Positions 1,468-63,692 of a stretch of 64,000 nt of DNA are shown in pieces. A program made the position numbers and the translations under genes. Within the stretch, counting starts at the first letter, position 1. The number at the start of each line of letters is the position of its first letter. The DNA is from an uncultured Planctomycetia bacterium (GTDB taxonomy: Bacteria > Omnitrophota > Gorgyraeia > Gorgyraeales > Gorgyraeaceae), in contig CAYPYS010000007.1 of assembly GCA_964415355.1 (NCBI GenBank), positions 11,208 through 75,207 of the forward strand, written 5' to 3'. The notes under the pieces were generated by a model that was given only the letters and a program-made list of their open reading frames with translations, was not told where the DNA came from and searched no databases.

Positions 1468-2061
1468 ATGAATAGGATTGCTTTTTTTGCATCTATATTT
1501 TTTATCGCTACGATTCTGTTCTCCGGATGCAATATTGTACCTAAATCAGTGCAGTATCAAAAAGAGGAAGAAAAGCTCATAGGTAATACAGACACCATAA
1601 ATCCCAGGGTGGAAGAGATTCAGATCGTGCTCGACGGGCTCGGATACGATATGGGTAATACTGACGGTAGAATGGGACAAAAGACGCGCGAGGCAATAAA
1701 GGAATTTCAAGAGTCACTGGGACTCAAGAGCACAGGATATATAAACGAACGCACGCTGATTCAGGTCGAAGACATCAGGAGGGTTGACGAGGATAAGGAA
1801 TTGAAGGACAAATATGGAGTGGACGTGAGGAGTCCGTATGTAGAAGAAATCGTTTCAGCTGGGTTCGAGCCCACAGCAAAGGACATACAAAATGCTTTAA
1901 AGAACGCTGGGTTTGACCCGGGCGCCATCGACGGCAAAATAGGGCCGCGGACAAAACAAGCTGTCATGGAATTTCAGAAGGTAAATGGCCTTAAGGTGGA
2001 CGGCAAGGTCGGCTCCAAGACATGGGGGGAGCTTAGTAAGTATTTAGGCGCACAAGATTAA
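1468..2061 (+). CDS. Lipoprotein with two peptidoglycan-binding (PG_binding_1-like) repeats
   Basis: 197-aa ORF with a hydrophobic N-terminus ending in lipobox-like 'LFSGC'. Two repeats are present: 'GQKTREAIKEFQESLGLKSTG' and 'GPRTKQAVMEFQKVNGLKVDG'. SD-like aaggggg lies upstream. Confidence 0.7.
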   Translation: MNRIAFFASIFFIATILFSGCNIVPKSVQYQKEEEKLIGNTDTINPRVEEIQIVLDGLGYDMGNTDGRMGQKTREAIKEFQESLGLKSTGYINERTLIQVEDIRRVDEDKELKDKYGVDVRSPYVEEIVSAGFEPTAKDIQNALKNAGFDPGAIDGKIGPRTKQAVMEFQKVNGLKVDGKVGSKTWGELSKYLGAQD

Positions 2062-2105
2062 CTTTAAGTATACACTTCAACGTTGTTGAAGTGTATACTT
2101 AAAGT
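2059..2105 (+). repeat. Intergenic palindromic repeat copy 1 (T2 TATACA-arm subfamily, centre AACGTTGTT, perfect 21-bp arms)
   Basis: taactttaagtatacacttcaacgttgttgaagtgtatacttaaagt; the leading TAA is the stop of CDS 1468-2061. Confidence 0.9.
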
Positions 2106-2512: not shown

Positions 2513-3361
2513 ATGAATTACATTAAGACTGGATTCTTGTTGGTGCTTTTGACCATGCTTTTTGTGTGGATCGGAGGACACTTTGGCGGACAGGCAGGCG
2601 CTACGTATGCGTTTATGTTCGCGCTTATAATGAATGTCGGGGCGTATTGGTTTAGCGATAAGATCGTGCTTAAGATGTACGGCACGAAAGAGGCCCAGGA
2701 GAGCGAGGTCCCCGAGCTTTATAATATAGTGAAAGAGTCGACGGCTTCTGCAAAGCTCCCGATGCCGAAGGTATGCATCGCGCCTCAAAATTCTCCGAAC
2801 GCGTTTGCGACCGGCCGTAATCCTAAACACGCGGCGGTCTGCGTGACGCAGGGCATATTAAATCTTCTGAGCCGCGAAGAATTAAAAGGCGTAATAGCGC
2901 ACGAACTCGCGCATATAAAAAATAGAGACACGTTAATAATGACAGTGGCTGCTACTATAGCCGGAGCCATTACAATGCTTGCCAGCTTGGCGAGGTGGGC
3001 CGCGATATTCGGAGGTTTCGGCGGGAGGGGCGGACGCTCTAGGGACAGCAACGTGCTCGGATATTTGTTTATGCTCATCGTTGCGCCTATAGCAGCGATG
3101 CTCATACAGCTTGCGATATCAAGATCGAGGGAATATGAGGCTGACAAAAGAGGCGCTTATATAGCGAAGAACCCCACAGGCCTGGCTGACGCGCTTTTGA
3201 AATTAGAAAAAGGTACAAGGCGTTATCCTGTACAGGCTAATAATGCAACAGCTCATCTTTTCATTGTAAATCCTTTGCGGGGCAAAGGCCTGGCAGCTCT
3301 TTTCAGCACTCATCCTCCGGTCAAAGACCGCGTAGAAAGACTCAGGAAATTAAATGTCTAA
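2513..3361 (+). CDS. htpX: Zinc metalloprotease HtpX (peptidase M48)
   Basis: 'HELAHIKNRD' HExxH motif, 4 TM segments, typical HtpX N-terminus and 'NAFATG' motif. SD aaggagg. Confidence 0.9.
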   Translation: MNYIKTGFLLVLLTMLFVWIGGHFGGQAGATYAFMFALIMNVGAYWFSDKIVLKMYGTKEAQESEVPELYNIVKESTASAKLPMPKVCIAPQNSPNAFATGRNPKHAAVCVTQGILNLLSREELKGVIAHELAHIKNRDTLIMTVAATIAGAITMLASLARWAAIFGGFGGRGGRSRDSNVLGYLFMLIVAPIAAMLIQLAISRSREYEADKRGAYIAKNPTGLADALLKLEKGTRRYPVQANNATAHLFIVNPLRGKGLAALFSTHPPVKDRVERLRKLNV

Positions 3362-3396
3362 CTTTACACTTTAACATTGTTAAAATGTAAAGTTAG
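3359..3396 (+). repeat. Palindromic repeat copy 2 (T1, fwd)
   Basis: taactttacactttaacattgttaaaatgtaaagttag; TAA is the htpX stop. Confidence 0.9.
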
Positions 3397-3654: not shown

Positions 3655-3692
3655 TAACTTTACACTTTAACGTTGTTAAAATGTAAAGTTAG
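3655..3692 (+). repeat. Palindromic repeat copy 3 (T1, fwd), located in the nrdJ 5' UTR
   Basis: taactttacactttaacgttgttaaaatgtaaagttag. It lies between promoter 3608-3635 and the nrdJ SD and is not at a gene 3' end. Confidence 0.9.
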
Positions 3693-6013: not shown

Positions 6014-6568
6014 ATGTCAATAAGACCCGATTCCTGGATCAAGAGAATGGCTTTAGAGCACGACATGATAAGGCCATTCGAGCCCACCCAAGTAAAAAAC
6101 GGCAACATTTCTTTTGGTCTATCCAGTTTTGGATATGATATGAGGATCGCTGACGAGTTCAAGCTATTAAGATCCTCAGGCGCGAAAGACGCCCTGGACC
6201 CTAAAAAAATAAATCCGGATCTATTCGAAGATTATAAGGGTAAAGTTTGCGTAATCCCGCCGAATTCTTTTGTCCTGGCGCGTTCGCTCGAATATTTTAA
6301 GATCCCAAGAAATGTCCTGGCGCTTTGTACTGGAAAAAGTACTTATGCGAGGATAGGGGTGGTGGTAAATGTAACGCCGCTGGAGCCTTCCTGGGAAGGT
6401 TTTATCACAATGGATATATCGAACACGTCCCCCTATCCTGTAAAGATTTATGCCAATGAGGGCATTGGCCAGATAGTTTTTTTTGAATCACAGGAGGCCT
6501 GCGAAATCAGTTATTCTGACCGCAAAGGCCGATATCAATCCCAAACCAAAATCACTTTACCCACCTAA
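6014..6568 (+). CDS. dcd: dCTP deaminase
   Basis: '[13 protein letters not shown]...IRPFEP', '[10 protein letters not shown]' and '[11 protein letters not shown]' are typical Dcd strings. The ATG at 6014 (2 nt after the nrdJ stop) is preferred over the ORF-track start 5963, which overlaps nrdJ. Confidence 0.85.
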
Positions 6569-6603
6569 CTTTACATTTCAACAACGTTAAAGTGTAAAGT
6601 TAG
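6566..6603 (-). repeat. Palindromic repeat copy 4 (T1, rev)
   Basis: taactttacatttcaacaacgttaaagtgtaaagttag; TAA is the dcd stop. Confidence 0.9.
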
Positions 6604-6617: not shown

Positions 6618-7373
6618 ATGGGAAACATAAAACTTGTGCTTTTAAGGCACGGCGAGAGCATATGGAACAAGGAAAATAAATTTACAGGGTGGACAGATGT
6701 TGATCTGTCTGAAAAAGGCGTGGAAGAGGCAAAAGAATCGGGCAGGGTTTTGAAAAAAGAAGGCTACATGTTTGACGTCGCGTTTACGTCTGTCTTGAAG
6801 AGAGCGATAAGGACGCTGTGGCTTGCTTTGGACGAGATGGATCTCATGTGGATTCCTGTCTACAGGTCGTGGCGTTTGAACGAGCGTCATTACGGCGCGC
6901 TGCAAGGACTAAACAAGGCAGAGACGGCAAAAAAATTCGGCGAGGAACAAGTGCTTATCTGGCGTAGGAGTTATGACGTGCCGCCTAGTGCATTGGATAA
7001 GACAGACGAGCGCTATCCCGGCAATGACCCAAGGTATCACGTATTGGATGAAAAAGATATCCCGCTTACCGAGTGTCTTAAAGATACAGTGGCCCGATTT
7101 CTTCCTTATTGGCACGATACGATAGCGCCTGCTGTGAAATCTGGCAAACGCGTACTTATAGCTGCGCACGGAAATAGTCTGCGTGCGCTCGTGAAATATC
7201 TGGACAATATCTCTGATGAGAAAATAGTAAAACTGAATATCCCCACCGGTATCCCGCTTATTTATGAACTAGACAAAGAGCTGAAGCCCGTCAGGCATTA
7301 TTACCTGGGCGACCCTGAAAAAGTCAAAAAGGCAATGGAAGCCGTAAGTAAACAGGGCAAGGCCAAGACCTAA
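6618..7373 (+). CDS. gpmA: 2,3-bisphosphoglycerate-dependent phosphoglycerate mutase
   Basis: '[29 protein letters not shown]', 'ERHYGALQG', '[10 protein letters not shown]'. SD aggagga. Confidence 0.9.
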
Positions 7374-7406
7374 CTTTACACTTTAACGTTGTTGAAATGT
7401 AAAGTT
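7371..7406 (+). repeat. Palindromic repeat copy 5 (T1, fwd)
   Basis: taactttacactttaacgttgttgaaatgtaaagtt; TAA is the gpmA stop. Confidence 0.9.
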
Positions 7407-7434
7407 GACTTATAGCAGCTATATATGATAATAT

Positions 7435-8346
7435 ATGGCGGTCATGGCTAAGACAAAGCCGAAGCACGTTGTAATTTATCTATGCTTTAGAATTTTTAGC
7501 TTCTTTGTGTTTATGCTGCCGCTTAGGTGTGGCCTGGGGATCGGCCAGGGCCTTGGTAGATTGGCTTTCCGCCTTTTTAAAAAAGCTCGATTAAAGGCAT
7601 TAAAGAACCTGGATGCCTCATTTGCGAATTCCAGGACCAGAGAAGAGAAAGAGTTTATAGCTGAAGGGGTCTTTGAAAATCTTGGAAAAAATATTATCGA
7701 GATTATTTGCCTCTCGAAATTCGATAGAAACAATATAGACGCCTATATAAAATGCAAAGGGCTTAAGGCTATTACAGGGTTGATAGAGAAAGGGAAAGGC
7801 GGCGTTGTTCTCTCTGCTCATTTTGGTAATTGGGAGCTCATAGCGCATTATTTTGGGATCAAAGGGTATTCGGTTAACGTCATCGCCAGGCGAGTGAGGA
7901 TGGGACAGTTCGAGAATTTCCTAGCCAAAGCAAGGAAGCGCAACAGCGTAAAGATCTTATACAGGGACGCGTCCGCGAAAGAGACGGTCGCGCTTTTGAA
8001 GAAAAATGAATTCGTAGGCGTGATGCCTGACCAGGATATGGACAGCGTCTCCGGCGTCTTCGTAGATTTTTTTGGGCGCAAGGCATTTACGCCGAACGGG
8101 CCAGCGGTTTTAAATCTTATGACAGGAGTGCCCATAATTCCTTGCTTTATTGTCAGAAAGGATTTTGGCCACGAGATCGTTATAGATGAGCCCATAGAGC
8201 TCAGCACTACAGGAGACAGGCGCAGAGATATTCTGGAGAACACCCAGAGATATACAAAAGTAATAGAGGATCAAATAAGGAAATACCCGTCGCAGTGGGT
8301 CTGGTTTCACGACAGATGGAAGACAAAGGAAGAACAATGCGCTTAA
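7435..8346 (+). CDS. Lipid A biosynthesis (LpxL/HtrB-family) lysophospholipid acyltransferase
   Basis: N-terminal TM segment, 'SAHFGNWE' acyltransferase motif, and a location next to lptC/A-lptB. Confidence 0.7.
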   Translation: MAVMAKTKPKHVVIYLCFRIFSFFVFMLPLRCGLGIGQGLGRLAFRLFKKARLKALKNLDASFANSRTREEKEFIAEGVFENLGKNIIEIICLSKFDRNNIDAYIKCKGLKAITGLIEKGKGGVVLSAHFGNWELIAHYFGIKGYSVNVIARRVRMGQFENFLAKARKRNSVKILYRDASAKETVALLKKNEFVGVMPDQDMDSVSGVFVDFFGRKAFTPNGPAVLNLMTGVPIIPCFIVRKDFGHEIVIDEPIELSTTGDRRRDILENTQRYTKVIEDQIRKYPSQWVWFHDRWKTKEEQCA

Positions 8347-8382
8347 GTTTACACTTTAACATTGTTGAAATGTATACTTAAG
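8344..8382 (+). repeat. Palindromic repeat copy 6 (T1/T2 hybrid arms, fwd)
   Basis: taagtttacactttaacattgttgaaatgtatacttaag; TAA is the acyltransferase stop. Confidence 0.85.
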
Positions 8383-9254: not shown

Positions 9255-9992
9255 ATGATTAATAACAACGGACATTTATTACGAATACAGGGCCTCGAGA
9301 AATCTTACGACGGTAAAAGAGTCGTGAACGGCGTTAGCATGGAAGTGAAAAGAGGCGAGATCGTCGGGCTTTTAGGTCCTAACGGTGCGGGAAAGACTAC
9401 GACTTTTTATATGGTTGTGGGGATGCTAAAGCCTGAAGGAGGCAAGATAACCTTTGACGGGCAAGATATCACAAAACTGCCCATGTACAGGCGTTCGCGA
9501 TGCGGCATTGGTTATCTTTCTCAAGAGCCTTCTATTTTTAGAAAACTTACGGTCGAAGAGAATATAATGGCGATATTAGAGACGCTGGATCTTCCGCGCT
9601 CAGTCCGCAAGAAAAGGCTAAAGGAACTCCTGGGGGAATTACATATTGCGCATCTCGCTAAAAAGAGCGCGTACATGCTTTCCGGCGGGGAGAGACGCAG
9701 ATTAGAAATAACAAGGGCGCTTGTGACAAACCCGCTGTTTATACTTCTTGATGAGCCTTTTAGCGGCATTGACCCCATTGCAGTGTCTGATGCGCAGGAC
9801 ATAATAGCTGACCTGAGGCAAAAAGGCCTCGGCATCCTTCTTACCGATCACAATGTTAGAGAAACACTTGAAATAACAGACCGTTCGTATATAATGGCAG
9901 AAGGAAGAATACTGATATCAGGGACAGCTGATAAACTTATAAAGGATTCAAGGGCCCGTGAAATATATTTGGGTGAGAATTTCCGCATGTAA
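9255..9992 (+). CDS. lptB: LPS export ABC transporter ATP-binding protein LptB
   Basis: Walker A 'GPNGAGKTT', 'YLSQEPSIFRKLTVEENI', signature 'LSGGERRR', Walker B 'ILLDEPF'. Confidence 0.9.
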   Translation: MINNNGHLLRIQGLEKSYDGKRVVNGVSMEVKRGEIVGLLGPNGAGKTTTFYMVVGMLKPEGGKITFDGQDITKLPMYRRSRCGIGYLSQEPSIFRKLTVEENIMAILETLDLPRSVRKKRLKELLGELHIAHLAKKSAYMLSGGERRRLEITRALVTNPLFILLDEPFSGIDPIAVSDAQDIIADLRQKGLGILLTDHNVRETLEITDRSYIMAEGRILISGTADKLIKDSRAREIYLGENFRM

Positions 9993-10026
9993 CTTTACAT
10001 TTCAACAACGTTAAAGTGTAAAGTTA
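9990..10026 (-). repeat. Palindromic repeat copy 7 (T1, rev)
   Basis: taactttacatttcaacaacgttaaagtgtaaagtta; TAA is the lptB stop. Confidence 0.9.
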
Positions 10027-10048: not shown

Positions 10049-11110
10049 ATGAAATCCAGCATAAAAAAACACAAAAACTGCAAAAGAGTAGCGGAGGTCA
10101 AGCTTGCGCCTGAGAGGGTCAAGGACGAGTTTGAGAGAGTCTACAGGGATATTCAGAGAGTTGCAAGCGTGCCTGGGTACAGGGTCGGGAAGGCGCCGCG
10201 TGATCTATTGGAACTTCACTATGGAAAGACTGCCAGAGAAGAAGTGATCAAAAATCTCATACCTGAGACTTACAGGAAGTTATTGGAAGAACACAAGTTG
10301 GACCCGATAGGCTATCCAGACATAAGCGATGTGAAGCTGGATCTAAAAGACGGATTTTATTATAAGGCCAGCATTGAGACAAAGCCGGAATTTACATTGA
10401 AAAGTTACAAGGGTTTGAAGATTAAAAAGAAAAGTGCTGAGGCAAAAGAAGAAGATGTCCAGAAAAATTTAGAGTCGCTGCGAGAGATGCATGCGCAAAG
10501 AATACCTAAGAAAGAAAGCAAAGAAGGCGAGGAAAAAGAAAAGGTTCTTCCTAAGCTGGATGATGAGTTTGCCAAGGATCTTGGCCTTGAGAATCTGGAA
10601 AAACTAAAAGAAGTAGTGAAAGATGGATTAAAGAAGCGCCTGGAACAGGAGAGTCAAGCTGATCTGGAGATGCAGATCATCAATCAGCTTGTCGATGGTG
10701 TTAATTTTGAGGTACCTGAGTCACTTGTGAATGCCGAAAAAGAAAGGTTGATAAAAGACGCCGAGAATCGCATCTCGTATATGCAGGCTATCCAGAAACA
10801 ACAAGATCCGAAAAAGGAATTTTCATTGAATGATAAGGACAAGAAAGAGCTGGAGGCCAATGCAGAAAAGCAGGCGTTGCGCCAGGTAAAGGCGTTTTTT
10901 ATGCTGGACAGGATCGCGCAGGCTGAAAAGATATATTTGAAACAGGAAGAGCTGGAACAGCACATTGACCAGATTGCAAAGCAGTATAAAAAGACAAAGG
11001 AAGAAGCAAGGGCGCAGCTGGAAAAGAACCGCATGCTTGACGAGATGGCCGTGAACATGAGGAATGCAAAGGTAATAGAGTTTCTTATAAAGGAAGCAAA
11101 GGTTTCTTAA
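10049..11110 (+). CDS. tig: Trigger factor lacking the FKBP/PPIase domain
   Basis: Ribosome-binding signature 'VPGYRVGKAP' (GFRxGxxP-like) in the N-domain. The C-terminal arm domain is recognisable ('LPKLDDEFAKDLG...'). At 353 aa the middle ~100-aa PPIase module is replaced by a short Lys/Glu linker. Confidence 0.8.
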   Translation: MKSSIKKHKNCKRVAEVKLAPERVKDEFERVYRDIQRVASVPGYRVGKAPRDLLELHYGKTAREEVIKNLIPETYRKLLEEHKLDPIGYPDISDVKLDLKDGFYYKASIETKPEFTLKSYKGLKIKKKSAEAKEEDVQKNLESLREMHAQRIPKKESKEGEEKEKVLPKLDDEFAKDLGLENLEKLKEVVKDGLKKRLEQESQADLEMQIINQLVDGVNFEVPESLVNAEKERLIKDAENRISYMQAIQKQQDPKKEFSLNDKDKKELEANAEKQALRQVKAFFMLDRIAQAEKIYLKQEELEQHIDQIAKQYKKTKEEARAQLEKNRMLDEMAVNMRNAKVIEFLIKEAKVS

Positions 11111-11146
11111 AGTATACTTTTAACATTGTTGAAATGTATACTTAAG
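11108..11146 (+). repeat. Palindromic repeat copy 8 (T2, fwd)
   Basis: taaagtatacttttaacattgttgaaatgtatacttaag; TAA is the tig stop. Confidence 0.85.
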
Positions 11147-11815: not shown

Positions 11816-11856
11816 CTTAAGTATACATTTCAACAATGTTAAAGTATGTACTTAAG
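11816..11856 (-). repeat. Palindromic repeat copy 9 (T2, rev)
   Basis: cttaagtatacatttcaacaatgttaaagtatgtacttaag; 18 nt after the clpP stop. Confidence 0.85.
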
Positions 11857-11880: not shown

Positions 11881-13011
11881 ATGAAGAATTATTTATTAAC
11901 GCCTGGGCCGACACCGGTGCCGCCAGAGTCTTTAACTGCAATGGCAAGGCCAATGATCCACCACAGGACTCCGCAGTTCCAGGCTATATTAAAGGAAACA
12001 GAAGAAGACCTTAAGTATGTATTCGAAACCAAGGACCCTGTTTTGATATTTGCTGCTAGCGGCACAGGCGCAATGGAAGGGACAGTGTGCAACCTGCTTT
12101 CTCCCGGAGACAAGGCAATAGTCGTAAGAGCCGGGAAATTCGGAGAGAGATGGGGCGAACTGTGCACAGCGTATGGCATAGAATTTATCCCTGTGGATGT
12201 GGAATGGGGCAAGGCAGTCGAGCCGCAGGAGATAAAAAAGATTTTAGATAAAGAATCTAAGATAAAGGCAGTTTATGTAACACTCTGCGAGACATCCACG
12301 GGTACCGCTACAGACATACGGAAAATCGCAGCGATAACAAAGGACACTCAGGCGGTTTTGGTCGTGGATGCGATAAGCGCGCTCGGCGCAGTGCCTCTGA
12401 AGACTGACGAGTGGGGCATTGATGTTGTAGTATCTGGTTCGCAGAAAGGGCTGATGATCCCGCCAGGCCTTGCGTTTGTGAGTTTAAACGAAAAGGCATG
12501 GAAGCTTGCTGAGGTATCGAAGCTGCCAAAATACTATTTTAATTTCAAGGCGTACAAAAAATCTATCGAGAAAAACGACACGCCTTATACGTCTGCCGTG
12601 AATCTTATAATAGGCCTGAACGAGGCGCTGAGGATCATCAGGAGAGACGGGCTTGCGAATGTAATTGCCCGACATAAAAAGCATGCGCAGGCTGTGCGCT
12701 CGGCTTGCAACGCCCTGGGGCTCGAGCTTTTCGCGCCAGACGCGTATTCTGACGCTGTGACTTCGGTTAAGGTGCCAGAGGGGATTGACGGCGCGAAGCT
12801 TGTAAAGACAATGCGCGACAAATACGGCGTGGCGATCGCTGGCGGACAGGCGCAGCTAAAAGGAAAGATATTCAGGATAGCTACCATGGGCTACATTACG
12901 GCAGCGGATTTAAAAATAGGCATAGAGACTCTTGAGACAGCACTTGCAGAGTCAGGATATAAGTTTGAAAAAGGCGCAGGAGTCAAGGCGCTGGAGAAGG
13001 GGTTGAGCTAA
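11881..13011 (+). CDS. Class V aminotransferase (serine-pyruvate/phosphoserine aminotransferase type)
   Basis: 'LLTPGPTPVP' N-terminus, PLP-Lys context 'SGSQKGLMIPPG', adjacent to serA. Start 11881 is preferred over 11836, which lies in the repeat. Confidence 0.8.
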   Translation: MKNYLLTPGPTPVPPESLTAMARPMIHHRTPQFQAILKETEEDLKYVFETKDPVLIFAASGTGAMEGTVCNLLSPGDKAIVVRAGKFGERWGELCTAYGIEFIPVDVEWGKAVEPQEIKKILDKESKIKAVYVTLCETSTGTATDIRKIAAITKDTQAVLVVDAISALGAVPLKTDEWGIDVVVSGSQKGLMIPPGLAFVSLNEKAWKLAEVSKLPKYYFNFKAYKKSIEKNDTPYTSAVNLIIGLNEALRIIRRDGLANVIARHKKHAQAVRSACNALGLELFAPDAYSDAVTSVKVPEGIDGAKLVKTMRDKYGVAIAGGQAQLKGKIFRIATMGYITAADLKIGIETLETALAESGYKFEKGAGVKALEKGLS

Positions 13012-13046
13012 CTTTACACTTTAACGTTGTTGAAATGTAAAGTTAG
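13009..13046 (+). repeat. Palindromic repeat copy 10 (T1, fwd)
   Basis: taactttacactttaacgttgttgaaatgtaaagttag; TAA is the stop of the class V aminotransferase. Confidence 0.9.
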
Positions 13047-13086: not shown

Positions 13087-14670
13087 ATGCTCAGGATACT
13101 TATAAGTGACCCTTTGGCAAAAGAAGGTGTTGAGTTACTGCAGGCGGAAAAGAGTTTTAAGGTAGACGTGAAATTAAAACTTCCTCCGGAAGAGCTGAAG
13201 AAGATAATCAAGGATTATGACGCGCTTTTGGTGCGGAGTGGCACAAAGGTCACGAAAGACATTATAGAGAAGGCGAATAAATTAAAGGTGATAGGCAGGG
13301 CCGGAGTAGGACTTGACAATGTTGATCTTAGCGCTGCTTCGAAGCGCGGCATCATAGTCATGAATACGCCAGGAGGCAACACGATCTCTACTGCTGAGCA
13401 CACGATGTCTCTTATGCTCGCGCTTTCCCGAAACATACCTCAGGCAGACGTTTCGACGAAACAGGGTAAGTGGGAGAGAAAAAAGTTCATGGGCGTCGAG
13501 CTGCATGGTAAGACACTGGGCATTATAGGGCTCGGGAGGATCGGCGGCGAGGTTGCGAAGCGCGCCAAGACATTTGGCATGAAGGTGCTGGTGTATGATC
13601 CGTTTTTGTCATTGGATAAAGTAGAGGAATTAGGCATTGTGTCAGCTGAATTGGACGCTATATTTAAAGCGTCGGACTACATTACGGTCCATACGCCGCT
13701 CACAGATGAAACAAAGCATATTATCGGCAAGAAGACAATAGACAAGATGAAAAAAGGAGTGCGCATTGTAAATTGCGCAAGAGGTGGCATTATAGATGAA
13801 ACGGCAGTGGTCTATGGAATAAAGAGCGGGAAAATAGCGGGCGCTGCATTTGACGTATATGAAAAAGAGCCTCCGAAAGACAGTCCTCTGATTGGATGCG
13901 AGAATATTATCCTTACTCCTCACTTGGGCGCGTCTACAGAGGAAGCGCAGGTCAATGTGGCGGTAGATATTGCCAATAGCGCGAAGGACGCGCTCTTGGG
14001 CTGCGGCATACGGAATGCCGTGAACGTGCCATGTGTCGACGCAGAGCTTTACAAGGTCCTGCATCCTTACGCAGAGCTCAGCGAGAAGATGGGTTCGCTA
14101 GCCGCGCAGATCGCTAGCGGCAGGATATCGCAGATAAATATAAAATACTCAGGTGACATCGCCAAGTATGGTTCGTCCCCTTTGACAGTGGCTGTTGTAA
14201 AAGGAGCGCTTACGCCTATTTTACAGGAGACAGTCAACTACGTTAATTCTCTTATAGTGGCAAAGGAGCGGGGGATAAAGGTCAAGGAATCCAAGTCAAT
14301 GGAACTGGAAGAGTACGCGAATCTTGTAACAGTGGAGGTCAAGACAGATAAGGGTTCGGTGTCGGTCGACGGGACCTTGTTTACGAAGACCGATGCGAGG
14401 ATCGTGAAGGTCAATGAGTTTCATGTGGATGCGATACCCGAAGGCTACATGCTGGTGGCTCACAATATTGACGTGCCCGGCATCATAGGTAAGATAGGGA
14501 CGATACTCGGGAATAACAAAATAAATATCGCGGCGATGACATTCGGGCGGGAAAAACCGGGCGGAAAAACACTTTCGGTCTTAAACGTGGATAGCGCAGT
14601 GCCTGAAAATGTGCTTTCAGAGATAAGAAAGGCAAAGAATATTTTAGACGCAACGCTGATAAAACTCTAA
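13087..14670 (+). CDS. serA: D-3-phosphoglycerate dehydrogenase (long form with C-terminal ACT domain)
   Basis: 'GRAGVGLDNVD', NAD fold 'GIIGLGRIGGEVA', 'TPHLGAST'. Start 13087 with SD aagaggag; the ORF-track start 13027 ('MLKCKV') is a repeat-derived artefact. Confidence 0.9.
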   Translation: MLRILISDPLAKEGVELLQAEKSFKVDVKLKLPPEELKKIIKDYDALLVRSGTKVTKDIIEKANKLKVIGRAGVGLDNVDLSAASKRGIIVMNTPGGNTISTAEHTMSLMLALSRNIPQADVSTKQGKWERKKFMGVELHGKTLGIIGLGRIGGEVAKRAKTFGMKVLVYDPFLSLDKVEELGIVSAELDAIFKASDYITVHTPLTDETKHIIGKKTIDKMKKGVRIVNCARGGIIDETAVVYGIKSGKIAGAAFDVYEKEPPKDSPLIGCENIILTPHLGASTEEAQVNVAVDIANSAKDALLGCGIRNAVNVPCVDAELYKVLHPYAELSEKMGSLAAQIASGRISQINIKYSGDIAKYGSSPLTVAVVKGALTPILQETVNYVNSLIVAKERGIKVKESKSMELEEYANLVTVEVKTDKGSVSVDGTLFTKTDARIVKVNEFHVDAIPEGYMLVAHNIDVPGIIGKIGTILGNNKINIAAMTFGREKPGGKTLSVLNVDSAVPENVLSEIRKAKNILDATLIKL

Positions 14671-14705
14671 CTTTACATTTCAACAATGTTAAAGTGTAAA
14701 GTTAG
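14668..14705 (-). repeat. Palindromic repeat copy 11 (T1, rev)
   Basis: taactttacatttcaacaatgttaaagtgtaaagttag; TAA is the serA stop. Confidence 0.9.
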
Positions 14706-15974: not shown

Positions 15975-16007
15975 CTTTACATTTCAACAATGTTAAAGTG
16001 TAAAGTT
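15972..16007 (-). repeat. Palindromic repeat copy 12 (T1, rev)
   Basis: taactttacatttcaacaatgttaaagtgtaaagtt; TAA is the stop of the HMGL-like synthase. Confidence 0.9.
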
Positions 16008-16046
16008 GGACGGGGTGGTATGCGGTAACGCATAGAAGGAGAGATT

Positions 16047-17279: not shown

Positions 17280-17315
17280 CTTTACACTTTAACGTTGTTG
17301 AAATGTAAACTTAAG
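17277..17315 (+). repeat. Palindromic repeat copy 13 (T1, fwd, right arm GTAAACTT)
   Basis: taactttacactttaacgttgttgaaatgtaaacttaag; TAA is the purA stop. Confidence 0.9.
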
Positions 17316-19422: not shown

Positions 19423-19460
19423 TAACTTTACACTTTAACGTTGTTGAAATGTAAAGTTAG
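19423..19460 (+). repeat. Palindromic repeat copy 14 (T1, fwd)
   Basis: taactttacactttaacgttgttgaaatgtaaagttag; begins 3 nt after the hppA stop. Confidence 0.9.
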
Positions 19461-20260: not shown

Positions 20261-20296
20261 CTTTACATTTCAACAACGTTAAAGTGTAAAGTTAAG
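20258..20296 (-). repeat. Palindromic repeat copy 15 (T1, rev)
   Basis: taactttacatttcaacaacgttaaagtgtaaagttaag; TAA is the stop of the OmpA-like gene. Confidence 0.9.
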
Positions 20297-21057: not shown

Positions 21058-21093
21058 CTTTACACTTTAACGTTGTTAAAGTGTAAAGTTAAG
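21055..21093 (+). repeat. Palindromic repeat copy 16 (T1, fwd, perfectly complementary arms)
   Basis: taactttacactttaacgttgttaaagtgtaaagttaag; TAA is the uppS stop. Confidence 0.9.
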
Positions 21094-21096
21094 GAT

Positions 21097-21138
21097 CTTA
21101 AGTATACATTTCAACAATGTTAAAATGTATACTTAAAG
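21097..21138 (-). repeat. Palindromic repeat copy 17 (T2, rev), tandem to copy 16
   Basis: cttaagtatacatttcaacaatgttaaaatgtatacttaaag. Confidence 0.85.
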
Positions 21139-21967: not shown

Positions 21968-22002
21968 CTTTACATTTCAACAACGTTAAAGTGTAAAGTT
22001 AG
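21965..22002 (-). repeat. Palindromic repeat copy 18 (T1, rev)
   Basis: taactttacatttcaacaacgttaaagtgtaaagttag; TAA is the cdsA stop. Confidence 0.9.
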
Positions 22003-43853: not shown

Positions 43854-43888
43854 CTTTACACTTTAACGTTGTTAAAATGTAAAGTTAA
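43851..43888 (+). repeat. Palindromic repeat copy 34 (T1, fwd)
   Basis: taactttacactttaacgttgttaaaatgtaaagttaa; TAA is the tyrS stop. Confidence 0.9.
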
Positions 43889-51899: not shown

Positions 51900-51935
51900 C
51901 TTTACATTTCAACGTTGTTGAAATGTAAAGTTAAG
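51897..51935 (+). repeat. Palindromic repeat copy 35 (T1, fwd, perfectly complementary arms)
   Basis: taactttacatttcaacgttgttgaaatgtaaagttaag; TAA is the stop of giant ORF 2. Confidence 0.9.
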
Positions 51936-51952
51936 CAGTGCGCTGACCACCT

Positions 51953-51989
51953 TAACTTCACGCTTTAACGTTGTTGAAGTGTGAAGTTA
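51953..51989 (+). repeat. Palindromic repeat copy 36 (diverged T1, fwd)
   Basis: taacttcacgctttaacgttgttgaagtgtgaagtta; 17 nt after copy 35. Confidence 0.8.
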
Positions 51990-61600: not shown

Positions 61601-63657
61601 CTGTTGAAGAGTTGATAGAAGAGTTTCTGGCAAAAAGAGAGCCTGTTGAAATTGATGTTGCTCAACCGGAAGAAGAAGACGCAGCGCTAAAAAGTAATGT
61701 CAGGCTCATGAATTCAAACAAGGCAGCTGCTATTGCACAGGTGCAGTCTGGCGTAAAGTATGTCCCCGGCTATCCGACAACCCCTGCGAGCAGTGTGGTC
61801 GAGATATTGGATACATATCAGGACAAGGGCTTGCCGCTTATAGTATCGCTTCTTCCTGCAGAAGACTCAGTGGGCGGAGAATTACTTGGCACTGCGCTGG
61901 CAGGAGGCATGCCTGCGACAGGGACTACATCAGTGGCATTGGCGTATATGTTTAACCAGCATCTTGCAGATATGGTAGGTAAAAGGACGCCTGTTGTCGT
62001 AAATGTGCCTGTCCGCGCATTGAATATAGGTTCCTTGAGTATATTTCCCGACGAGACAGACATAGCAATGTTCAGGGATTATGGTGTGTATCTGCGCGCG
62101 CGCAATGCGCAGGAAGTGTATTATTTCAATATCATTGCGTGGAGGATCGCAAAGAAACTTAGGATGCCTGTATTCGTAGTGTATACGGGATTCCGCAACA
62201 GCCATACCACAGAACCTGTCGAAATACTCGGTGATTACGATAGAATAGAGGAGTATCTGGGCGGGACAGGATTATTTTCTATAAGAGATACTATACTGGA
62301 CCAGGAATCGCCTAAGATGATAGGGCCTGTTGTCGGCAAAGAGATCATGATGGAGCAGATGGCAGAGCTTTTTGAGGATATAGCACGAAATCAGGACCAT
62401 GTAATAGAGGAGGCTTTTGCGGAATTTGAAAGGCTCTTTGGTATTAGGTTTGATAGATTCAGGCAGTATAGGGTCGAGGATGCCGATGAGATAATAGTGG
62501 TGCAAGGAGATACAGGCGAGACTATCGAGCTTATGGTCGACAGATTAAGGGACCAGGGCAGAAGGGTCGGCGTAATAGAGATAGCTACAATAAGGCCTTT
62601 CCCCGGGAAGGAATTAAGAGAGGCGCTTGTTAATATAAATCCGAAGATAATAACTGTCCTGGATAATGCGCCGAGCCACTATTTGTATGATGATGTCGTA
62701 AGGTCTATCCAGTTTACAGATATACAGGTCTGGGGACCTGTGATATATGGTCTGGGCGGGAGGGATTTCTTCAGACAGGATGCGGTAACGCTTTATGATA
62801 CGCTGATCTCGCTTAGAGTGCTTCAGGCATTAGGAGCAAAAGAAAGTCCTGTTTCTCTGACCAGAGCGTCTCTGACGCAGCTTTTGAATGAGGAGGCAGT
62901 GACACTGGGCATGGCAAAGCACGGATTTGTCGAACCAGGCGATGCGCTTGCGGGCCGGCGAGGAGCAAGAAGCATCCCGGCGATACTTGACACGCTGGAT
63001 TTTGCAGCCAGCTCGGCTGATATGCCTGGATTTTCAAGAAACGCTGTCTTTGAAAAGTTGACGCAGGGTGAGCTCCTCAAGCTTTTTGGCGACGAGTATT
63101 ATTTTGGAGCTCGCAGGAAATATAAGCATGATCTGCTTATGCACGCGCTGGTGAATGAGTTGGCAGTCAGGCTTTCTAGGCAGTTACTGGGATCTAATAT
63201 CGGCACTATAGACGAGAGGACGCAGGCAATAGATGCGCTCGTGCATTTGAGTGACATAGAAGCGGATAAGGAACTCGCCAGAACAAGCTCTGAGAGTTTG
63301 CGCAAGTATCGACGCAGGGATCAGGTTGCTTCAACGGACCAGATTATCGCAGTGTCTGCCGCACAGGTCATAGCCGAGAAAAAAGAATTCGAGGCATGGA
63401 TAGAGAACCAGTCAGAGAATATTGCTGTAGTTATAATAGCTACGGCTGAAGAGTATTATCAGGTCAGGGAGTATGAGGACATCGCCTATATAAAGGTAGT
63501 GGGCAAGGACATTAGCGAAGCGCATGGCCTTACCTTGAAAAGGTTGTTGGCATTGCACGGTCATTTAGATAATTTCGGTGGCTTCAGGCTTGGCGACGAA
63601 AAGTTCGATCTAGACGAATACAGGTCAGCCCTGACCGAGCTCTCCACCGGCATCTAA
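52546..63657 (+). CDS. Giant fusion ORF 3 (3703 aa): signal-like leader, unknown ~600-aa region, NfnB/GltD-like flavoprotein, NfnA/PyrK-like module, PorD-, PorB-, PorC- and PorA-like 2-oxoacid:ferredoxin oxidoreductase modules, shared C-terminal domain
   Basis: Uninterrupted 11.1-kb ORF with SD aaggag 7 nt before the ATG. Domain motifs are listed in the separate domain features. Confidence 0.85.
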   Translation: MTWKIIRKITSIVILITFLSTNVIYAAPGPRKTLRVPLGFAREKLLEQEQTGLPTKEMLLMMAQAVAMRMDDESILMDLGTTFFNTAFRRNLGSPIEIRRNKNTGTVHIRYNDRYISITRSGNISVSSRINFDKAELVIASIKPLVASSSDPTDKKDRTIGSLLGLMETFADLGLKPGEKITINDIIPERKKQDGTLYSRTTVSREFKDAVALDLLRLTGNKIKNSNEYEVLKSFTREQLSRLPGHIRKKLNRGRIRSDEIEELRRIFIAETLMGQGTLLKVFLAGLAGFQEALADIPYDLSGANTETVQSLFTAVENIVFLARDFDKKDPAYAEAYIYESLGFVDIDGKRRLALVITPFEDRRKTGSLDVLVFDSLLSANYTSHAIKATEIEMVSTIVGRLDEKDIISLSLKFRAEYLDNPDGPGTSDTRRSAKDFFLYFASKRNATQEILDLDEELIDGLEGRDLEIKERMARLKEGVSDKDLLDEWFIEIMQGKDTLVQYLLYTGDAATFWYDLLLELDYTRAINEMFLSRPDAMTTYARNAYEQAVVASWIYIHRADFGSPLGERAAEDRIEDFQLALTWDTLGIPGQKALGMTKAEFPVCLNCVGRPCQHGPLGSVAAQTRTRSGFASGIRSLIEDNNVSASVQLEGVFISEGVSYLTHLYNYAELLLIDQADVTRWMNMTARELDSEIRLLTDDADAIDQEAKNIAEPHCPLEVPIADMFRLMRQDRFEEALEILNNSSFLAGIFGLVCPQEHLCQAACVQGRLSDRPLPIDIGKLEYLIELTYMRINGELPMPEVAPFTGKYVAIIGSGPAGLQAAYDLAREGHKVVLFEHLHKVGGVLVYGIPTFRLPPELLEEKVRILKEMGVNFVTNAIIGEDGAYTIEEMRRSFDAVIVGVGAGQSNKMEIRGKVVLLDEKTGRARLEVPEYAKRVPIPGRALNGIYSAYHFLSWTYLMNAIKPGYDTPIPLSKNILQAFTESRATGEEKEVTVVVEGIGNVALDSGRTALRWINVLNRIYGTNVRPKIIFLYRRPREELDLKARAEELKHLREEGVDTIDIDVYELHQTVEYLGNTKGHIEGIRAIRYDRKGAKEGVLVDIPVDMVVEALGAKPATEILGPSIPLNRYGYIEIDNHRTMQVRDMDGSDGLAPVYAVGDCAEVDAIDERIMATAVLAATHGKRASEALIERLDNETGMVQRYIDIDKVFFKATPYRMHEILERRRIGKRELVSRPLRGDTGNVFSEQRIVEFTIYAPHVARRIRPGQFVTLMADEYSEKIPITYVGLGKIKGSIRLAILDAGESTVKINNMKKGDLFYAVTGPAGEPSIFTGLAGEVDLVGLGSGIAAIVGIAEHRADLDRKYKELMARLAGNSRADVVLSLIEEIWSELSLAKDDLLHYIVDAIRDRDYNEAKNLLTALAYSIEQDFPASELIADAEALVDTITMLEDSVEDEDELNLLVKQEVYQAIDDIWEEFEILKREKLLREISDFVSSGNYKNASNALNAVIGAGFETKVFLAVGNKDLLMYKTELEEAVGRENIFIALEDAEGFDPHAEGYASLIAHENRFFTGYGTIAFGDYLGRTHDPISGLLVAGPAFAMNLFVPLVREANRPDILSTRDVWMSTNPPMYCAYGGCLMCLVATEQAIPWRGCLGPEAEADMLIGDSIVKGLEMSKPQDIMPGVIFSTSPSVDREQAISDIVQALDEILYMPTVDGKLFVAISDAKGSFIAELRNGILEERLSDEDIDAVLENIDWERLGVFKPGHKIRFAGRISDVSGLELDRVMELLGLTMQGGSGAEDSDSGMTLDDLFSRSLDLSILGIEVIGEFREVSISPSGFSRLRAFLEEIGDRQKLEEILGLEGSEFIFVMNGANELVAIVIRNETRQKELLWIEGEASSELFSYLTLRASLRGSSISADLTVEEIKPGAILGPGATTTPASSALAKTGTWTTKYAEHDLDACVQCGLCALVCPEGAIAFDMEPALNTGRLVLPTNPDYCKGCDACVVHCPLKGYALKMIEKTDLRQVAVSLDTNPEGRGVVIEGAPALQFEGLFKEGIDRFKKALGLDVVEIISESESFVQVRYERGDIAYLFTFDKKNTRLILKPLRTFAVVGLESKNIDLADALRSRGFAVTGLISTKDRGFRDKLMEAERQGISVYAIEAGLLNPGISGSLQALLNDIERLRLARFVAVDTETIREIIGLDEYTKLVEEINEYTHNSIINSVDLLPTGNTDFDEVMASFAPEWQDQVRDLAPGHGLCPGCGQPTDTHLVLKVADEHGMAPVGVITTGCQEVSTTNWPFNSWRIPMVHGNYTASAAIVSGIFRVYQWFKKMGVSVYGDKEILPIVIMGDGGFAIGLNVISGGLEKGLPILYLVENNSGTQNTGAQASTLSMPGITAQGASQVKTTQGVYIPDIAKAHGPNVYYARVSNAYPEDFERKLNRAMEWIKQGRGPAVIESFNTACPTGWKSDATQSQEETSLSVQTGVGMTVLFEQVGNRIRITQPPLLRDGKIYINTEYMRSLEYELGHLRNAGGKRLLSDRQVASMISHIKKRREFILARELERRQPKKPGLPFVQLDLDALKNLLVLHSFNLPLESDLLIDRLDVLGLSGDEIEDIAQHRSEGNEFRNRQDVLRFITDVRYREVTERILDIYDTVEIRDFIMEWTETKEEGNIDFEETVVFEKIEDILKVPGIGPVTYDAVSPYLTLEPRRPHIFEYLSRQGRFRRLLGWDDEAFLGDMQRDVDAHILRLMAQHENDRAFFENFDNLLARGEKIPVEQFRYKSAREAHDKALVPARVIPADPERNIRILERRARLGDRVFEERWHGRGGQGAITAATLLATYAGEVEGIGIQAFPHFGVERAGAPVKAYVRMGNNIKQHDPVTEPDVVVVIDESLLELPEVLEGIKPGGFLLVNSKKPAEKILEELRAKGNALKDITLFSVDATGISIKHMGRNLPNIPMLAARIMVSRLTDADLGPAEGATDYIRQLLVEMFGEKIAGLNYDAMQESVRSIDAVSGAVEELIEEFLAKREPVEIDVAQPEEEDAALKSNVRLMNSNKAAAIAQVQSGVKYVPGYPTTPASSVVEILDTYQDKGLPLIVSLLPAEDSVGGELLGTALAGGMPATGTTSVALAYMFNQHLADMVGKRTPVVVNVPVRALNIGSLSIFPDETDIAMFRDYGVYLRARNAQEVYYFNIIAWRIAKKLRMPVFVVYTGFRNSHTTEPVEILGDYDRIEEYLGGTGLFSIRDTILDQESPKMIGPVVGKEIMMEQMAELFEDIARNQDHVIEEAFAEFERLFGIRFDRFRQYRVEDADEIIVVQGDTGETIELMVDRLRDQGRRVGVIEIATIRPFPGKELREALVNINPKIITVLDNAPSHYLYDDVVRSIQFTDIQVWGPVIYGLGGRDFFRQDAVTLYDTLISLRVLQALGAKESPVSLTRASLTQLLNEEAVTLGMAKHGFVEPGDALAGRRGARSIPAILDTLDFAASSADMPGFSRNAVFEKLTQGELLKLFGDEYYFGARRKYKHDLLMHALVNELAVRLSRQLLGSNIGTIDERTQAIDALVHLSDIEADKELARTSSESLRKYRRRDQVASTDQIIAVSAAQVIAEKKEFEAWIENQSENIAVVIIATAEEYYQVREYEDIAYIKVVGKDISEAHGLTLKRLLALHGHLDNFGGFRLGDEKFDLDEYRSALTELSTGI
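54358..56125 (+). other. NfnB / GltD-like (glutamate synthase small-subunit family) FAD/NAD(P)H oxidoreductase module with a split N-terminal Fe-S motif
   Basis: 'CLNCVGRPC' ... (~100-aa insert) ... 'HCPLEVPI', 'GLVCPQEHLCQAAC', dinucleotide fold 'KYVAIIGSGPAGLQAAYDLAREGHKVVLFE', 'GGVLVYGIPTFRLP', 'VYAVGDCA'. Confidence 0.75.
56165..57530 (+). other. NfnA / PyrK-like ferredoxin-NADP reductase-type module (FAD barrel, NAD fold, 2Fe-2S) with a ~155-aa helical insertion
   Basis: 'RPGQFVTLM', 'IPITYVG', 'TGPAGEP', 'DLVGLGSGIAAIVGIAEH', then an insertion at 56610-57085. The fold resumes at 'KVFLAVGN' and ends in the Cys motif 'MYCAYGGCLMCLV...RGCLGPE'. Confidence 0.65.
58320..58610 (+). other. 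PorD-like (delta subunit) 2x[4Fe-4S] ferredoxin module
   Basis: 'KPGAILGPGATTTP...KTGTWTT' followed by 'CVQCGLCALVCP' (58428-58463) and 'CKGCDACVVHCP' (58540-58575). Confidence 0.85.
59300..60030 (+). other. PorB-like (beta subunit) thiamine-diphosphate-binding module
   Basis: 'GHGLCPGCG', 'TTGCQEV', TPP motif 'GDGGFAIGLNVISGGLEKGLPILYLVENN' (GDG-X24-NN), 'NTACPTGW'. All four Fe-S Cys positions are present. Confidence 0.85.
60365..60665 (+). other. Two ComEA-like helix-hairpin-helix-type segments in the PorB-PorC linker
   Basis: 'IEDIAQHRSEGNEFRNRQDVLRFI' and 'ILKVPGIGPVTYDAVSPYL' resemble the A-x-x-I-x-x-yR-x-x-G-x-F...L-x-x-V-PGIG pattern. Confidence 0.35.
60990..61490 (+). other. PorC-like (gamma subunit) module
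   Basis: 'WHGRGGQGAITAATLLA', 'AFPHFGVERAGAPV', 'PDVVVVIDESL', 'VDATGISIKHMGRNLPNIPMLAA'. Confidence 0.85.
61695..62815 (+). other. PorA-like (alpha subunit) module
   Basis: 'MNSNKAAAIAQVQSGVKYVPGYPTTPASSVVE', 'AEDSVGGELLGTALAGGMPATGTTSVALAYM', 'TPVVVNVPVRAL', 'PVFVVYTGFRNSHTTEPVE', 'IRPFP'. Confidence 0.85.
63337..63654 (+). other. Shared C-terminal domain (~106 aa), copy in giant ORF 3
   Basis: DQIIAVSAAQVIAEKKEFEAW...AVVIIATAEEYYQVREYEDIAYIKVVGKDISEA...DNFGGFRLG...DLDEYRSALTELSTGI. Confidence 0.8.
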
Positions 63658-63692
63658 GTTTACATTTTAACGTTGTTGAAATGTAAACTTAG
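63655..63692 (+). repeat. Palindromic repeat copy 37 (T1 variant, fwd)
   Basis: taagtttacattttaacgttgttgaaatgtaaacttag; TAA is the stop of giant ORF 3. Confidence 0.9.

Follow-up and report, generated by a model that had tools for sequence, protein, structure and literature searches.

Why should nearly every gene junction of a bacterial chromosome carry a copy of one and the same short palindrome? The question is raised by a 64-kb stretch of DNA (positions 1-64000, here called the window) on the 172.7-kb contig Ga0118720_1000035 of Joint Genome Institute (JGI) metagenome sample 3300009374. Its genes are bacterial housekeeping genes whose nearest named homologues all belong to Candidatus Omnitrophota, and the window is part of the chromosome of an uncultured marine Omnitrophota bacterium. 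An initial annotation, made from the sequence alone, had described 37 copies of a palindromic element of unequal orientation (24:13) at 33 of 42 gene ends, with a single gene on the minus strand, and had preferred to explain it as a form of RNA punctuation. A consensus search, an orientation call on the asymmetric centre and a tabulation of the gaps all agree with these counts. Our comparisons lead to a different explanation: the element probably represents a family of very small, hairpin-forming, non-autonomous mobile elements of the repetitive extragenic palindrome (REP) or miniature inverted-repeat transposable element (MITE) class, and has probably spread, recently and more than once, into the spaces between the genes of one marine Omnitrophota clade.

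We defined a copy by at most 10 substitutions relative to the 37-nt consensus TAACTTTACACTTTAACGTTGTTGAAATGTAAAGTTA or its reverse complement. A search in both orientations returned 37 copies in the window, spanning positions 2065 to 63691. The pattern search that the initial annotation had proposed was equally clear, in that a degenerate pattern with at most three mismatches gave 33 matches as compared to none in 100 dinucleotide-preserving shuffles. Orientation was called from the asymmetric centre together with arm positions 11, 14, 24 and 27, which assigns 24 copies to the forward form (F; ..AAC-GTT/ATT-GTT..) and 13 to the reverse form (R), relative to the plus strand of the window. The arms are not exact complements, since canonical F copies carry C11.A27 and T14.G24 in the stem, and reverse-complementing such a copy gives the R form exactly; the unit is therefore oriented. 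Each copy consists of a 33-bp core, A(C/G)TTTACA...TGTAAA(G/C)T, with TA on either side, and the ends are TAAC/GTTA or TAAG/CTTA in 46 of 46 distinct variants. Most copies stand singly, and only three closely spaced pairs occur among the 37 (spacings of 1, 7 and 19 nt). The repeats are not an assembly artefact, because six samples independently gave the stretch at 31-52 kb of the window at 99.96-100% identity, and none of the few differences falls inside an element. Literature searches returned no description of the element in Omnitrophota.

Inverted, identical arms at gene ends had also suggested paired DNA-uptake sequences, like the inverted pairs of DNA uptake sequences (DUS) or uptake signal sequences (USS) of Neisseria or Pasteurellaceae. 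Genuine uptake sequences are abundant as single copies inside genes. The 13-nt half-sites of the element (32 and 30 occurrences in the window) always lie within full elements, never solo and never in coding sequence, and the arms vary between subfamilies in a compensatory way. With zero solo arms in the window this explanation was rejected, and we give it virtually no chance.

The placement of the copies is highly regular. A copy is present in 32 of the 41 inter-gene gaps and at the end of the last gene. The density, which had been called exceptional, is indeed about one copy per 1.7 kb, with about 80% of the gene junctions in the window occupied. A typical gap consists of a stop codon, an element, a Shine-Dalgarno (SD) sequence and a start codon, and the 3′ flank of the element usually is the SD sequence of the next gene. 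Gaps with an element have a median of 55 nt, and those without measure -80 to 34 nt, apart from one of 149. Coding sequence takes up 95.2% of the window, and the element, with 42% of the non-coding bases (1278/3059), is the largest single component of the non-coding DNA, although not most of it as had been claimed. Copies are preceded by a pyrimidine in 31 of 36 cases (C at position 0 in 18) and followed by a purine in 33 of 36 (G at position 38 in 21). The offset from the upstream stop ranges from 0 to +39 nt. A feature that had escaped the initial annotation is that in 25 of the 37 copies the first TAA of the element doubles as the stop codon of the upstream gene. Among young copies, with 0-1 mismatch, 16 of 23 are already at offset 0, and the fusion to the stop thus arises at insertion and not through later erosion of a spacer. 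A copy on the same contig just upstream of the window (L147, 950-986) even gives TAA to a plus-strand gene and TTA to the convergent minus-strand gene. The GTTGTTG centre of the element has also given rise to false TTG starts, called inside it at 8362, 11836, 13027, 39501, 40175 and 42657, by which six genes are lengthened by 9-20 codons; the real starts follow the SD downstream of the element.

A stable hairpin directly after a stop codon, one copy of which can close two convergent genes (L147 950-986 and window copy 27076), might be taken for a bidirectional transcription terminator or attenuator at most gene ends. The stem is, however, AU-rich and has no U-tract, the downstream flank is a purine-rich SD sequence, and a terminator scan flags 0 copies, in line with the initial view that this is no classical terminator. 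Copies moreover sit inside clusters, among them rimP-nusA-infB and scpA-scpB, that none of the relatives examined has broken up; efficient termination there would be expected from known operon structure to be harmful. Relatives in which the gene order is unchanged also do without the element. We consider a terminator extremely improbable.

How far does the element extend beyond this genome? The window was compared with four lineages, namely CAYULJ (the metagenome-assembled genome, MAG, CAYULJ01, GCA_964445715.1, with loci including L019, L142 and L145), L058/L059/L143, L060 and L061. Among the matches listed in a scan of one genome per species, the element was dense in CAYULJ01, a MAG labelled 'uncultured Planctomycetia', and present as a single copy in an Omnitrophota MAG and in an unclassified MAG. 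CAYULJ is a sister species (PurA 94% and AroF 93% identical, same gene order) with 108 copies in loci fetched from about 45 contigs. L058, L059 and L143 form a third lineage (AroF 95%, PurA 94% identical), which also bears the element. In L060 (AroF 85% identical) no copies were found across an identical 13-gene order, in which the spacers measure -35 to 26 nt with several ATGA overlaps. L060 (Ga0118720_1000598) comes from the same sample, 3300009374, as the window contig, so that the two form a natural comparison pair. L061 (AroF 81%), on a contig of 561 kb, has a 39-nt relative with only the termini TAAGTTTACA...TGTAAACTTA in common. The other Omnitrophota loci among 80 fetched from metagenomes lack the element, their hairpins being ordinary and diverse, and viral contigs are likewise free of it. 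A metagenome scan with the HMGL-like protein as query returned only distant relatives (at most 79% identity) and no new close lineages, and so provided a negative control across the phylum. The supposed punctuation thus belongs to one small clade, and not to the phylum or to these operons.

Within this clade the copies turn over. For 19 junctions the window was aligned with the L058/L143 lineage (94-95% amino acid identity): five have a copy in the same orientation in both, four have a copy that is flipped, seven are occupied in the window only, one is occupied in L058 by a 195-bp long form, and two are empty in both. Similarly, orientation matches that in CAYULJ only about half of the time, and the offset from the stop is 0 in the window as compared to +11 in CAYULJ at serA/HMGL (where L143 is empty), +8 at purA/pyrophosphatase and +21 at aroF/tyrA. 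Presence, orientation and exact position therefore differ between the closest lineages in the orthologous-junction comparison that the initial annotation had suggested. Copies are clearly not identical at all orthologous sites, and mobility stands. Some CAYULJ junctions carry a different palindrome family instead, and right-arm fragments lie within overlapping coding sequence at CAYULJ lpxL/lptC.

Copies at orthologous sites resemble the consensus of their own genome and not one another. The window and L058 share the type TAAC...GTT...GTTA, whose stem has C.A and T.G, whereas CAYULJ has the type CT-TAAG...ATT...CTTA-AG, with 11-27 paired, in two subfamilies that are each about 1:1 in orientation. 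CAYULJ has in addition amplified a 57-nt subfamily of more than eight copies with the asymmetric insert TACCACTTCGTGGCAC. The inner part of one arm is replaced in these by TACCACTTCGTGGCACAGGCTTTCCC, which has a small CCAC/GTGG hairpin of its own (L010 2610-2681, L022 440-509, L032 1220-1289 and 7398-7455, L035 2840-2912). The 195-bp form, whose 17-nt ends are those of the 37-bp repeat, occupies a different locus in each of two species (L058 13799-13993; L019 6944-7139); its interior is conserved and highly structured, with four hairpins, and has no Rfam match at E<=1 and no coding capacity. Terminal inverted repeats of 16-17 nt are common to the 37-, 57- and 195-bp forms. A second intergenic palindrome family in these genomes is headed by GTAG and REP-like (for example CCACACTGTAGGGGACGTTTAAACGTCCCCTACAGTGTGG), and is sometimes nested in the TA-flanked element or replaces it (L142 at about 6895-6975 and 13410-13460, L145 at about 4145-4210, L055 at about 770-836, L011 at about 4900-4978, and L061 at 5407-5433, 9949-9984 and 14989-15023). 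Taken together, the turnover bears the signatures of a mobile repeat family that amplifies from masters specific to each lineage, and whose copies possibly exchange sequence by gene conversion or template switching.

These comparisons bear directly on selected RNA punctuation, in which the hairpin would be kept for stabilising upstream mRNA or for directing the processing of polycistronic transcripts, for example by RNase III, so that function would set its distribution wherever it came from. The occupancy of about 80% of the window junctions, the similarly dense syntenic stretch of CAYULJ, and genes that are nearly all co-directional, with few terminator-like matches and none coinciding with elements, speak for such a role. 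On the other hand, L060 runs the same operons without copies and with overlapping genes, seven junctions with a copy in the window are empty in the L058 lineage, copies point either way effectively at random when lineages are compared, with a ratio of roughly 1:1 to 2:1 inside a genome, and the distance from the stop varies over the whole range of offsets given above. Punctuation is not needed to produce this pattern and we regard it as unlikely, while the REP/MITE-like alternative, also raised in the initial annotation, is favoured by the comparisons.

If the element is mobile, where does it insert? Three pairs of empty and filled sites fit insertion at TA with duplication of the TA. At scpA/scpB, L058 reads cact-TA-gaaagag and the window reads cact-TA-[ACTTT...AAAGT]-TA-ggaaagag; the TAG stop became TAA, and TAG recurs past the element. 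The second pair consists of TAAct-TA-agcg in L058 and TAGct-TA-[AGTTC...GAACT]-TA-agcg in CAYULJ (L145), and the third of gtct-TA-aggag, the SD itself, in L143 and acct-TA-[AGTTT...AAACT]-TA-agg in CAYULJ (L142). Footprints of mariner-like excision (TAAC-TTA in L058, TAACC-TTA in L143) were considered. The one in L058 was rejected, since the CAYULJ allele TAGct[TA..TA]agcg makes TAActTAagcg of L058 more simply the ancestral empty site, and the one in L143 is ambiguous. TTAA or CTTAAG as the duplicated target suits CAYULJ-type copies and not the window type, and was likewise set aside.

We propose that an enzyme acting in trans places the element into a TA dinucleotide, which is duplicated in the process. 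Few TA sites would take an insertion of 35 bp without harm, because the genome is 95% coding and ancestral spacers measured about 0-25 nt. One such site would be the TA of a TAA or TAG stop codon, where the left TA and the first A of the element restore TAA; indeed, since the core starts with A, TAA is rebuilt whenever the left junction falls in a TAA or TAG stop. The other would be the TA of a TAAGGAG ribosome-binding site, reconstituted intact at the right end, and a right junction in TAAGGAG does rebuild the SD. A rough by-eye count in the element-free junctions of L060 gave about seven stop-codon TAs, about three other tolerable TAs and about eight between the SD and the start codon. From this count a filter would predict that about 70% of surviving insertions lie on stops, and 68% is observed. 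A selective filter, rather than a punctuation function, may thus be what places the element on stop codons. After insertion the asymmetric centre would flip, or copies would be homogenised, and later fates may include decay, deletion down to the outer few bases, and nested insertions.

The copies of the window are listed below. Orientation is again relative to the plus strand, and 'stop-fused' means that the first TAA of the element ends the upstream gene.

2065..2101, F, of the TAAGTATACA subfamily, 3 nt past the stop of gene 1468-2061.
3359..3395, F, stop-fused to the M48 peptidase gene 2513-3361.
3655..3691, F, 14 nt before the start of the ribonucleotide reductase gene.
6566..6602, R, stop-fused to dcd.
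7371..7407, F, stop-fused to the upstream gene.
8344..8380, F, a variant, stop-fused to lpxL; CAYULJ has right-arm remnants only.
9990..10026, R, stop-fused to lptB; CAYULJ retains the right end only (TGAACTTA).
11108..11144, F, divergent and of the TATACA type, stop-fused to tig; this is the 37th copy.
11818..11854, R, divergent, with a partial left arm ahead of it; the L143 lineage carries TAACCTTAAG there.
13009..13045, F, canonical, stop-fused to serC.
14668..14704, R, stop-fused to serA; empty in L143, and 11 nt further downstream in CAYULJ.
15972..16008, R, stop-fused; in the opposite orientation in L143.
17277..17313, F, stop-fused to purA.
19423..19459, F, canonical, beginning 2 nt past the stop codon of the H+-pyrophosphatase gene.
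20258..20294, R, canonical, stop-fused.
21055..21135, a pair spaced by 7 nt: 21055, F, perfect in its stem and stop-fused to uppS; 21099, R, of the TATACA subfamily.
21965..22001, R, canonical, stop-fused to cdsA; in the opposite orientation in CAYULJ.
23170..23206, F, canonical, 7 nt past the TAG stop of dxr.
24339..24375, F, 36 nt past the stop of rseP.
27076..27112, F, between convergent genes, encoding the last five codons and the stop of proS.
29240..29276, R, canonical, between rimP and nusA; L058 has the same flanks and the opposite orientation.
30590..30626, F, canonical, stop-fused to nusA, within the conserved rimP-nusA-infB cluster.
32836..32872, R, stop-fused to infB.
33865..33901, F, canonical, stop-fused to trpS; the site is empty in L058 (TAACTTAAGCG), and in CAYULJ the TA of CTTAAG holds an R copy.
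34641..34677, R, stop-fused to scpA; L058 has the empty site cactTAGaaagag, which makes this the cleanest case for TA duplication.
36355..36429, an F copy and, 1 nt on, an R copy, both following pheA; empty in L058 (cccTAAaataaaaatt).
37515..37551, R, canonical, stop-fused to hisC; L058 and L060 retain the ATGA gene overlap.
38576..38612, F, canonical, stop-fused to aroF; flipped in L058, and 21 nt further downstream in CAYULJ.
39483..39519, F, canonical, stop-fused to tyrA; flipped in L058.
40157..40193, F, canonical, 5 nt past the TAG stop of plsC; same position and orientation in L058.
42639..42675, F, canonical, stop-fused to rpsA; L058 holds the 195-bp long form with the same ends.
43851..43887, F, stop-fused to tyrS; a perfect sigma70-type promoter match follows at 43896-43924.
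51897..51989, two copies 19 nt apart: 51897, chimeric, F, stop-fused to the gene for a 1269-aa protein; 51953, of the TTCAC/GTGAA subfamily.
63655..63691, F, a variant, stop-fused to the gene for a 3703-aa protein, about 215 nt before the 16S rRNA gene.

Some of these junctions preserve more than one stage of the process. For example, the hisC/aroF junction exists in three states, as the ancestral ATGA overlap, with a TA-flanked element in the window, and with a GTAG-headed palindrome in CAYULJ. The arrangement of copy 27076 at the end of proS survives in decayed form in CAYULJ (L019). At 7371 synteny between the window and CAYULJ (L142, about 1340) breaks at the first base of the copy, the upstream gene being a histidine phosphatase gene in the window and hflX in CAYULJ; this single case suggests that copies may mark rearrangement breakpoints.

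Is it the sequence of the element or its fold that is conserved? Of the stem positions in the 46 distinct variants, 96.3% pair, and both partners have changed in five pairs (4-34 as C-G/G-C at 20:22, 7-31 as U-A/C-G, 6-32 as U-A/A-U, and 10-28 and 11-27). Such symmetric variants coexist within one genome, which argues that a hairpin, of single-stranded DNA or RNA, is conserved and not a duplex sequence for protein binding. Intra-palindrome template switching could also yield this symmetry of the arms. Long symmetric sites at regular chromosomal intervals would otherwise recall binding sites for a dimeric or tetrameric DNA-binding protein, such as one involved in nucleoid organisation, SMC loading or global regulation. 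Given that one genome holds differing symmetric variants (C-G/G-C at 4-34, and TTTACA/TATACA/TTCACA), that copies are not conserved in sister lineages, and that orientation and position are free, we find such a role very improbable.

As RNA, the hairpin is predicted to fold with -10.7 to -12.4 kcal/mol alone and with -18 to -22 kcal/mol once the flanking Y...R extension is included, or for the 41-nt form of CAYULJ. This moderately stable fold and the compensatory changes that preserve pairing are further points in favour of RNA punctuation. Compensatory changes would also be possible through template switching or through the need for a single-stranded DNA hairpin in transposition. One weak signal in favour of an RNA role is a bias of the strands: in the imperfect subfamily of CAYULJ the sense strand carries T.G (G.U in RNA) 27 times and C.A 11 times, the perfect-stem subfamily is unbiased in orientation (18:15), and in the window species either orientation carries one T.G and one C.A. 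The bias is not specific to RNA and cannot separate RNA from single-stranded DNA, because for co-oriented genes the sense strand is both the mRNA and the lagging-strand template. Under the mobile-element explanation the copies would presumably be co-transcribed as moderately stable, AU-rich hairpins at the 3′ ends of cistrons, and the ribosome that terminates there would have to unwind a hairpin starting on its stop codon. By analogy with REP and Correia biology, side effects on the decay of mRNA or on the termination of translation are plausible; they would be mild and secondary.

Which enzyme might move the element? No transposase is encoded in the window. A tblastn search with Y1/RAYT-like queries (RAYT, REP-associated tyrosine transposase; the queries were approximate IS200/RAYT sequences) gave no match in 1.35 Mb of partial genome sequence, including the window, 8.5 kb upstream of it and about 0.35 Mb of the CAYULJ MAG, with about 0.45 Mb coming from element-bearing genomes. 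No multi-copy open reading frame (ORF) was found in the element-bearing sequence examined. A variant of the mobile-element explanation is a REP family in the strict sense, whose mover would be a RAYT (Y1/HUH) transposase that acts on a single-stranded hairpin without target duplication. The element resembles REPs in its 37-nt length, its imperfect stem with conserved mismatches near the loop, its high copy number and its extragenic position, and what is conserved is stem complementarity and not sequence. The sense-strand (lagging-template) bias in CAYULJ and the coexistence of GTAG-headed REP-type palindromes in these genomes point in the same direction. REP termini are known to supply stop codons, often those of flanking ORFs, and the GTAG/CGTC tag defines the REP superfamilies (PMC3733652). 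This tag is absent from all 46 distinct variants of the TA-flanked element, copies are mostly single and not in inverted pairs or clusters like bacterial interspersed mosaic elements (BIMEs), no Y1 homologue was found in the partial sequence examined (a weak test), and the scpA/scpB comparison fits TA duplication, which Y1 transposition does not make. The Y1/RAYT mover named in the initial annotation is thus unsupported, with neither the tag nor a Y1 gene in the partial sequence examined, and this variant is a possibility that we hold doubtful. The mover may be a TA-targeting DDE enzyme or a single-strand HUH enzyme; the 37-bp size and compensatory arms lean towards a hairpin substrate, and the TA duplication leans the other way.

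Several observations weigh against a mobile element of this kind. At 37 bp with a 3-nt centre, it is smaller than any MITE known to us, and such a size is not easily accommodated by a paired-end transposase complex on double-stranded DNA. For a purely neutral or selfish element, filling about 80% of the junctions in two or more lineages that evolve independently is a very high occupancy. The TA duplication is drawn from three comparisons, one of them ambiguous; TA and CTTAAG are palindromic, so that duplication is indistinguishable from an extension of the inverted repeat; sites read as 'empty' may instead have arisen by precise deletion of a copy; and two simple insertions would not yield the tandem pair that follows pheA. 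No transposase was found in the window or the other sequence examined, which comprises parts of each genome. The T.G excess in CAYULJ hints at strand-specific selection on hairpin stability. Finally, the six strain-level assemblies (99.96-100% identity) are without polymorphism and give no sign of movement within the population, and the dynamics therefore play out between species and not within populations. A bolder version of the same idea would hold that the 33-bp core is the smallest bacterial mobile DNA unit, that it moves as a single-stranded DNA hairpin by an undescribed enzyme or a replication-linked mechanism, that its ends evolved to rebuild stops and ribosome-binding sites, and that it was then co-opted as a genome-wide 3′-end hairpin setting segmental mRNA stability in very long co-directional operons; we think this improbable.

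The surrounding genes are of interest in their own right. The window encodes ribonucleotide reductase, lpxL, lptC/B, tig, clpP, serC/A, purA, H+-pyrophosphatase, uppS-cdsA-dxr, proS, rimP-nusA-infB, trpS, scpAB, pheA-hisC-aroF-tyrA, ispH, rpsA and tyrS; the only gene on the minus strand lies at 27115-28599. Between 43966 and 63657 three giant multi-enzyme fusion proteins are encoded in a row, followed by the start of the 16S rRNA gene. They comprise a 1372-aa protein with a C-terminal aminotransferase domain, the 1269-aa protein, in which phosphoglucomutase and phosphoglucose isomerase are fused, and the 3703-aa protein, with pyridine-nucleotide oxidoreductase, 4Fe-4S and pyruvate:ferredoxin oxidoreductase domains. 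The equivalent site of L060 encodes a 5034-aa protein. The start of the 16S rRNA gene is the sole match in an Rfam scan of the window, and a tRNA scan adds nothing. In the 451-nt gap, a 68-aa ORF (2228-2434) has a precomputed Pfam match to MamI that was unconfirmed, as a Pfam scan returned nothing at E<=0.001.

Across the window (1-64000) the GC skew is strongly positive (0.05-0.25), and this skew and the one-strand layout are consistent with a single replichore with extreme co-orientation of genes and replication. The one-strand layout had also suggested a phage origin, which was rejected on the housekeeping genes, the lack of a megablast match in phage collections and the lack of any viral contig with the element. 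Sigma70-type promoter matches occur in two of the longer gaps, a perfect one at 43896-43924 (TTGACA-17-TATAAT), just after an element, and a near-perfect one at 28676-28705 (TTGACA-18-TATATT), ahead of rimP. F-oriented elements carry a -35-like TTGAAA within the right arm.

What, then, does the element add to what is known of small repeats? It is an extreme of a selfish repeat in a streamlined genome, making up about 42% of the non-coding DNA and the stops of about 60% of the window genes, and it has pushed apart genes that overlap in relatives. Element-free L060 and the partly filled sister lineages form a natural before-and-after series for the effects on expression of a hairpin at the end of a cistron. 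The 37-bp size and compensatory arms make the element a good case for asking whether a bare hairpin suffices for transposition. In practice, such repeats will fragment Omnitrophota metagenome assemblies and mislead the calling of start codons.

Of the known systems, REPs and their inverted doublets are the closest in form. Like the element, they are imperfect palindromes of 20-40 nt, extragenic, lineage-specific and co-transcribed with flanking genes, and they run to hundreds of extragenic copies per genome. The element differs in its flanking TA, its AU-rich stem and the missing GTAG/CGTC tag, in being mostly single where inverted doublets (REPIN/BIME) are frequent in REPs, and in that no RAYT gene was seen in the partial sequence examined. 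It is also denser, the REP density being roughly one per 3-8 kb in Stenotrophomonas, Pseudomonas and E. coli. Among MITEs, Correia/nemis elements of Neisseria and the repeat unit of pneumococcus (RUP) of S. pneumoniae are intergenic near gene ends with TA-flanked terminal inverted repeats, are co-transcribed as a hairpin without a transposase of their own, and have subfamilies and length variants with the same ends, all as in the element. They measure about 100-160 bp, whereas the element has 37 bp around a 3-nt centre and so essentially amounts to two inverted repeats joined together; it occurs in a different phylum, and its arms change in a compensatory way, which points to a hairpin and not duplex repeats as what is recognised. 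RUP is linked to IS630-type transposases, and we know of no related full-length insertion sequence (IS) for the element.

The repeats of integrons (attC, including those of the Vibrio superintegron) similarly place an imperfect palindrome after each co-oriented gene, and a mismatched hairpin form matters in both cases. The element is shorter, with AAC/GTT at the hairpin tip, whereas attC sites have the R''/R' boxes at the base of the stem. An integron was rejected as an explanation, since the flanking genes are core housekeeping genes in conserved order and not cassettes, and no integrase was seen. The GC clusters of yeast mitochondria and the palindromes of Volvox organelles are tiny non-coding hairpins in nearly all intergenic spacers of compact genomes, for which no enzyme has been identified. 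They differ from the element in host and base composition, and the likeness is one that we draw from general knowledge.

With classical MITEs the element shares terminal inverted repeats and presence/absence polymorphism at orthologous sites, and it lacks their size of 50-500 bp with an interior derived from a parent IS, no parent IS having been found in the sequence examined. It thus fails the defining tests both of REPs proper (tag, doublets) and of classical MITEs (size, parent IS), and for this reason we file it as a variant small palindromic mobile repeat, remarkable for its density, its minimal size and its ends that rebuild stop codons and ribosome-binding sites.

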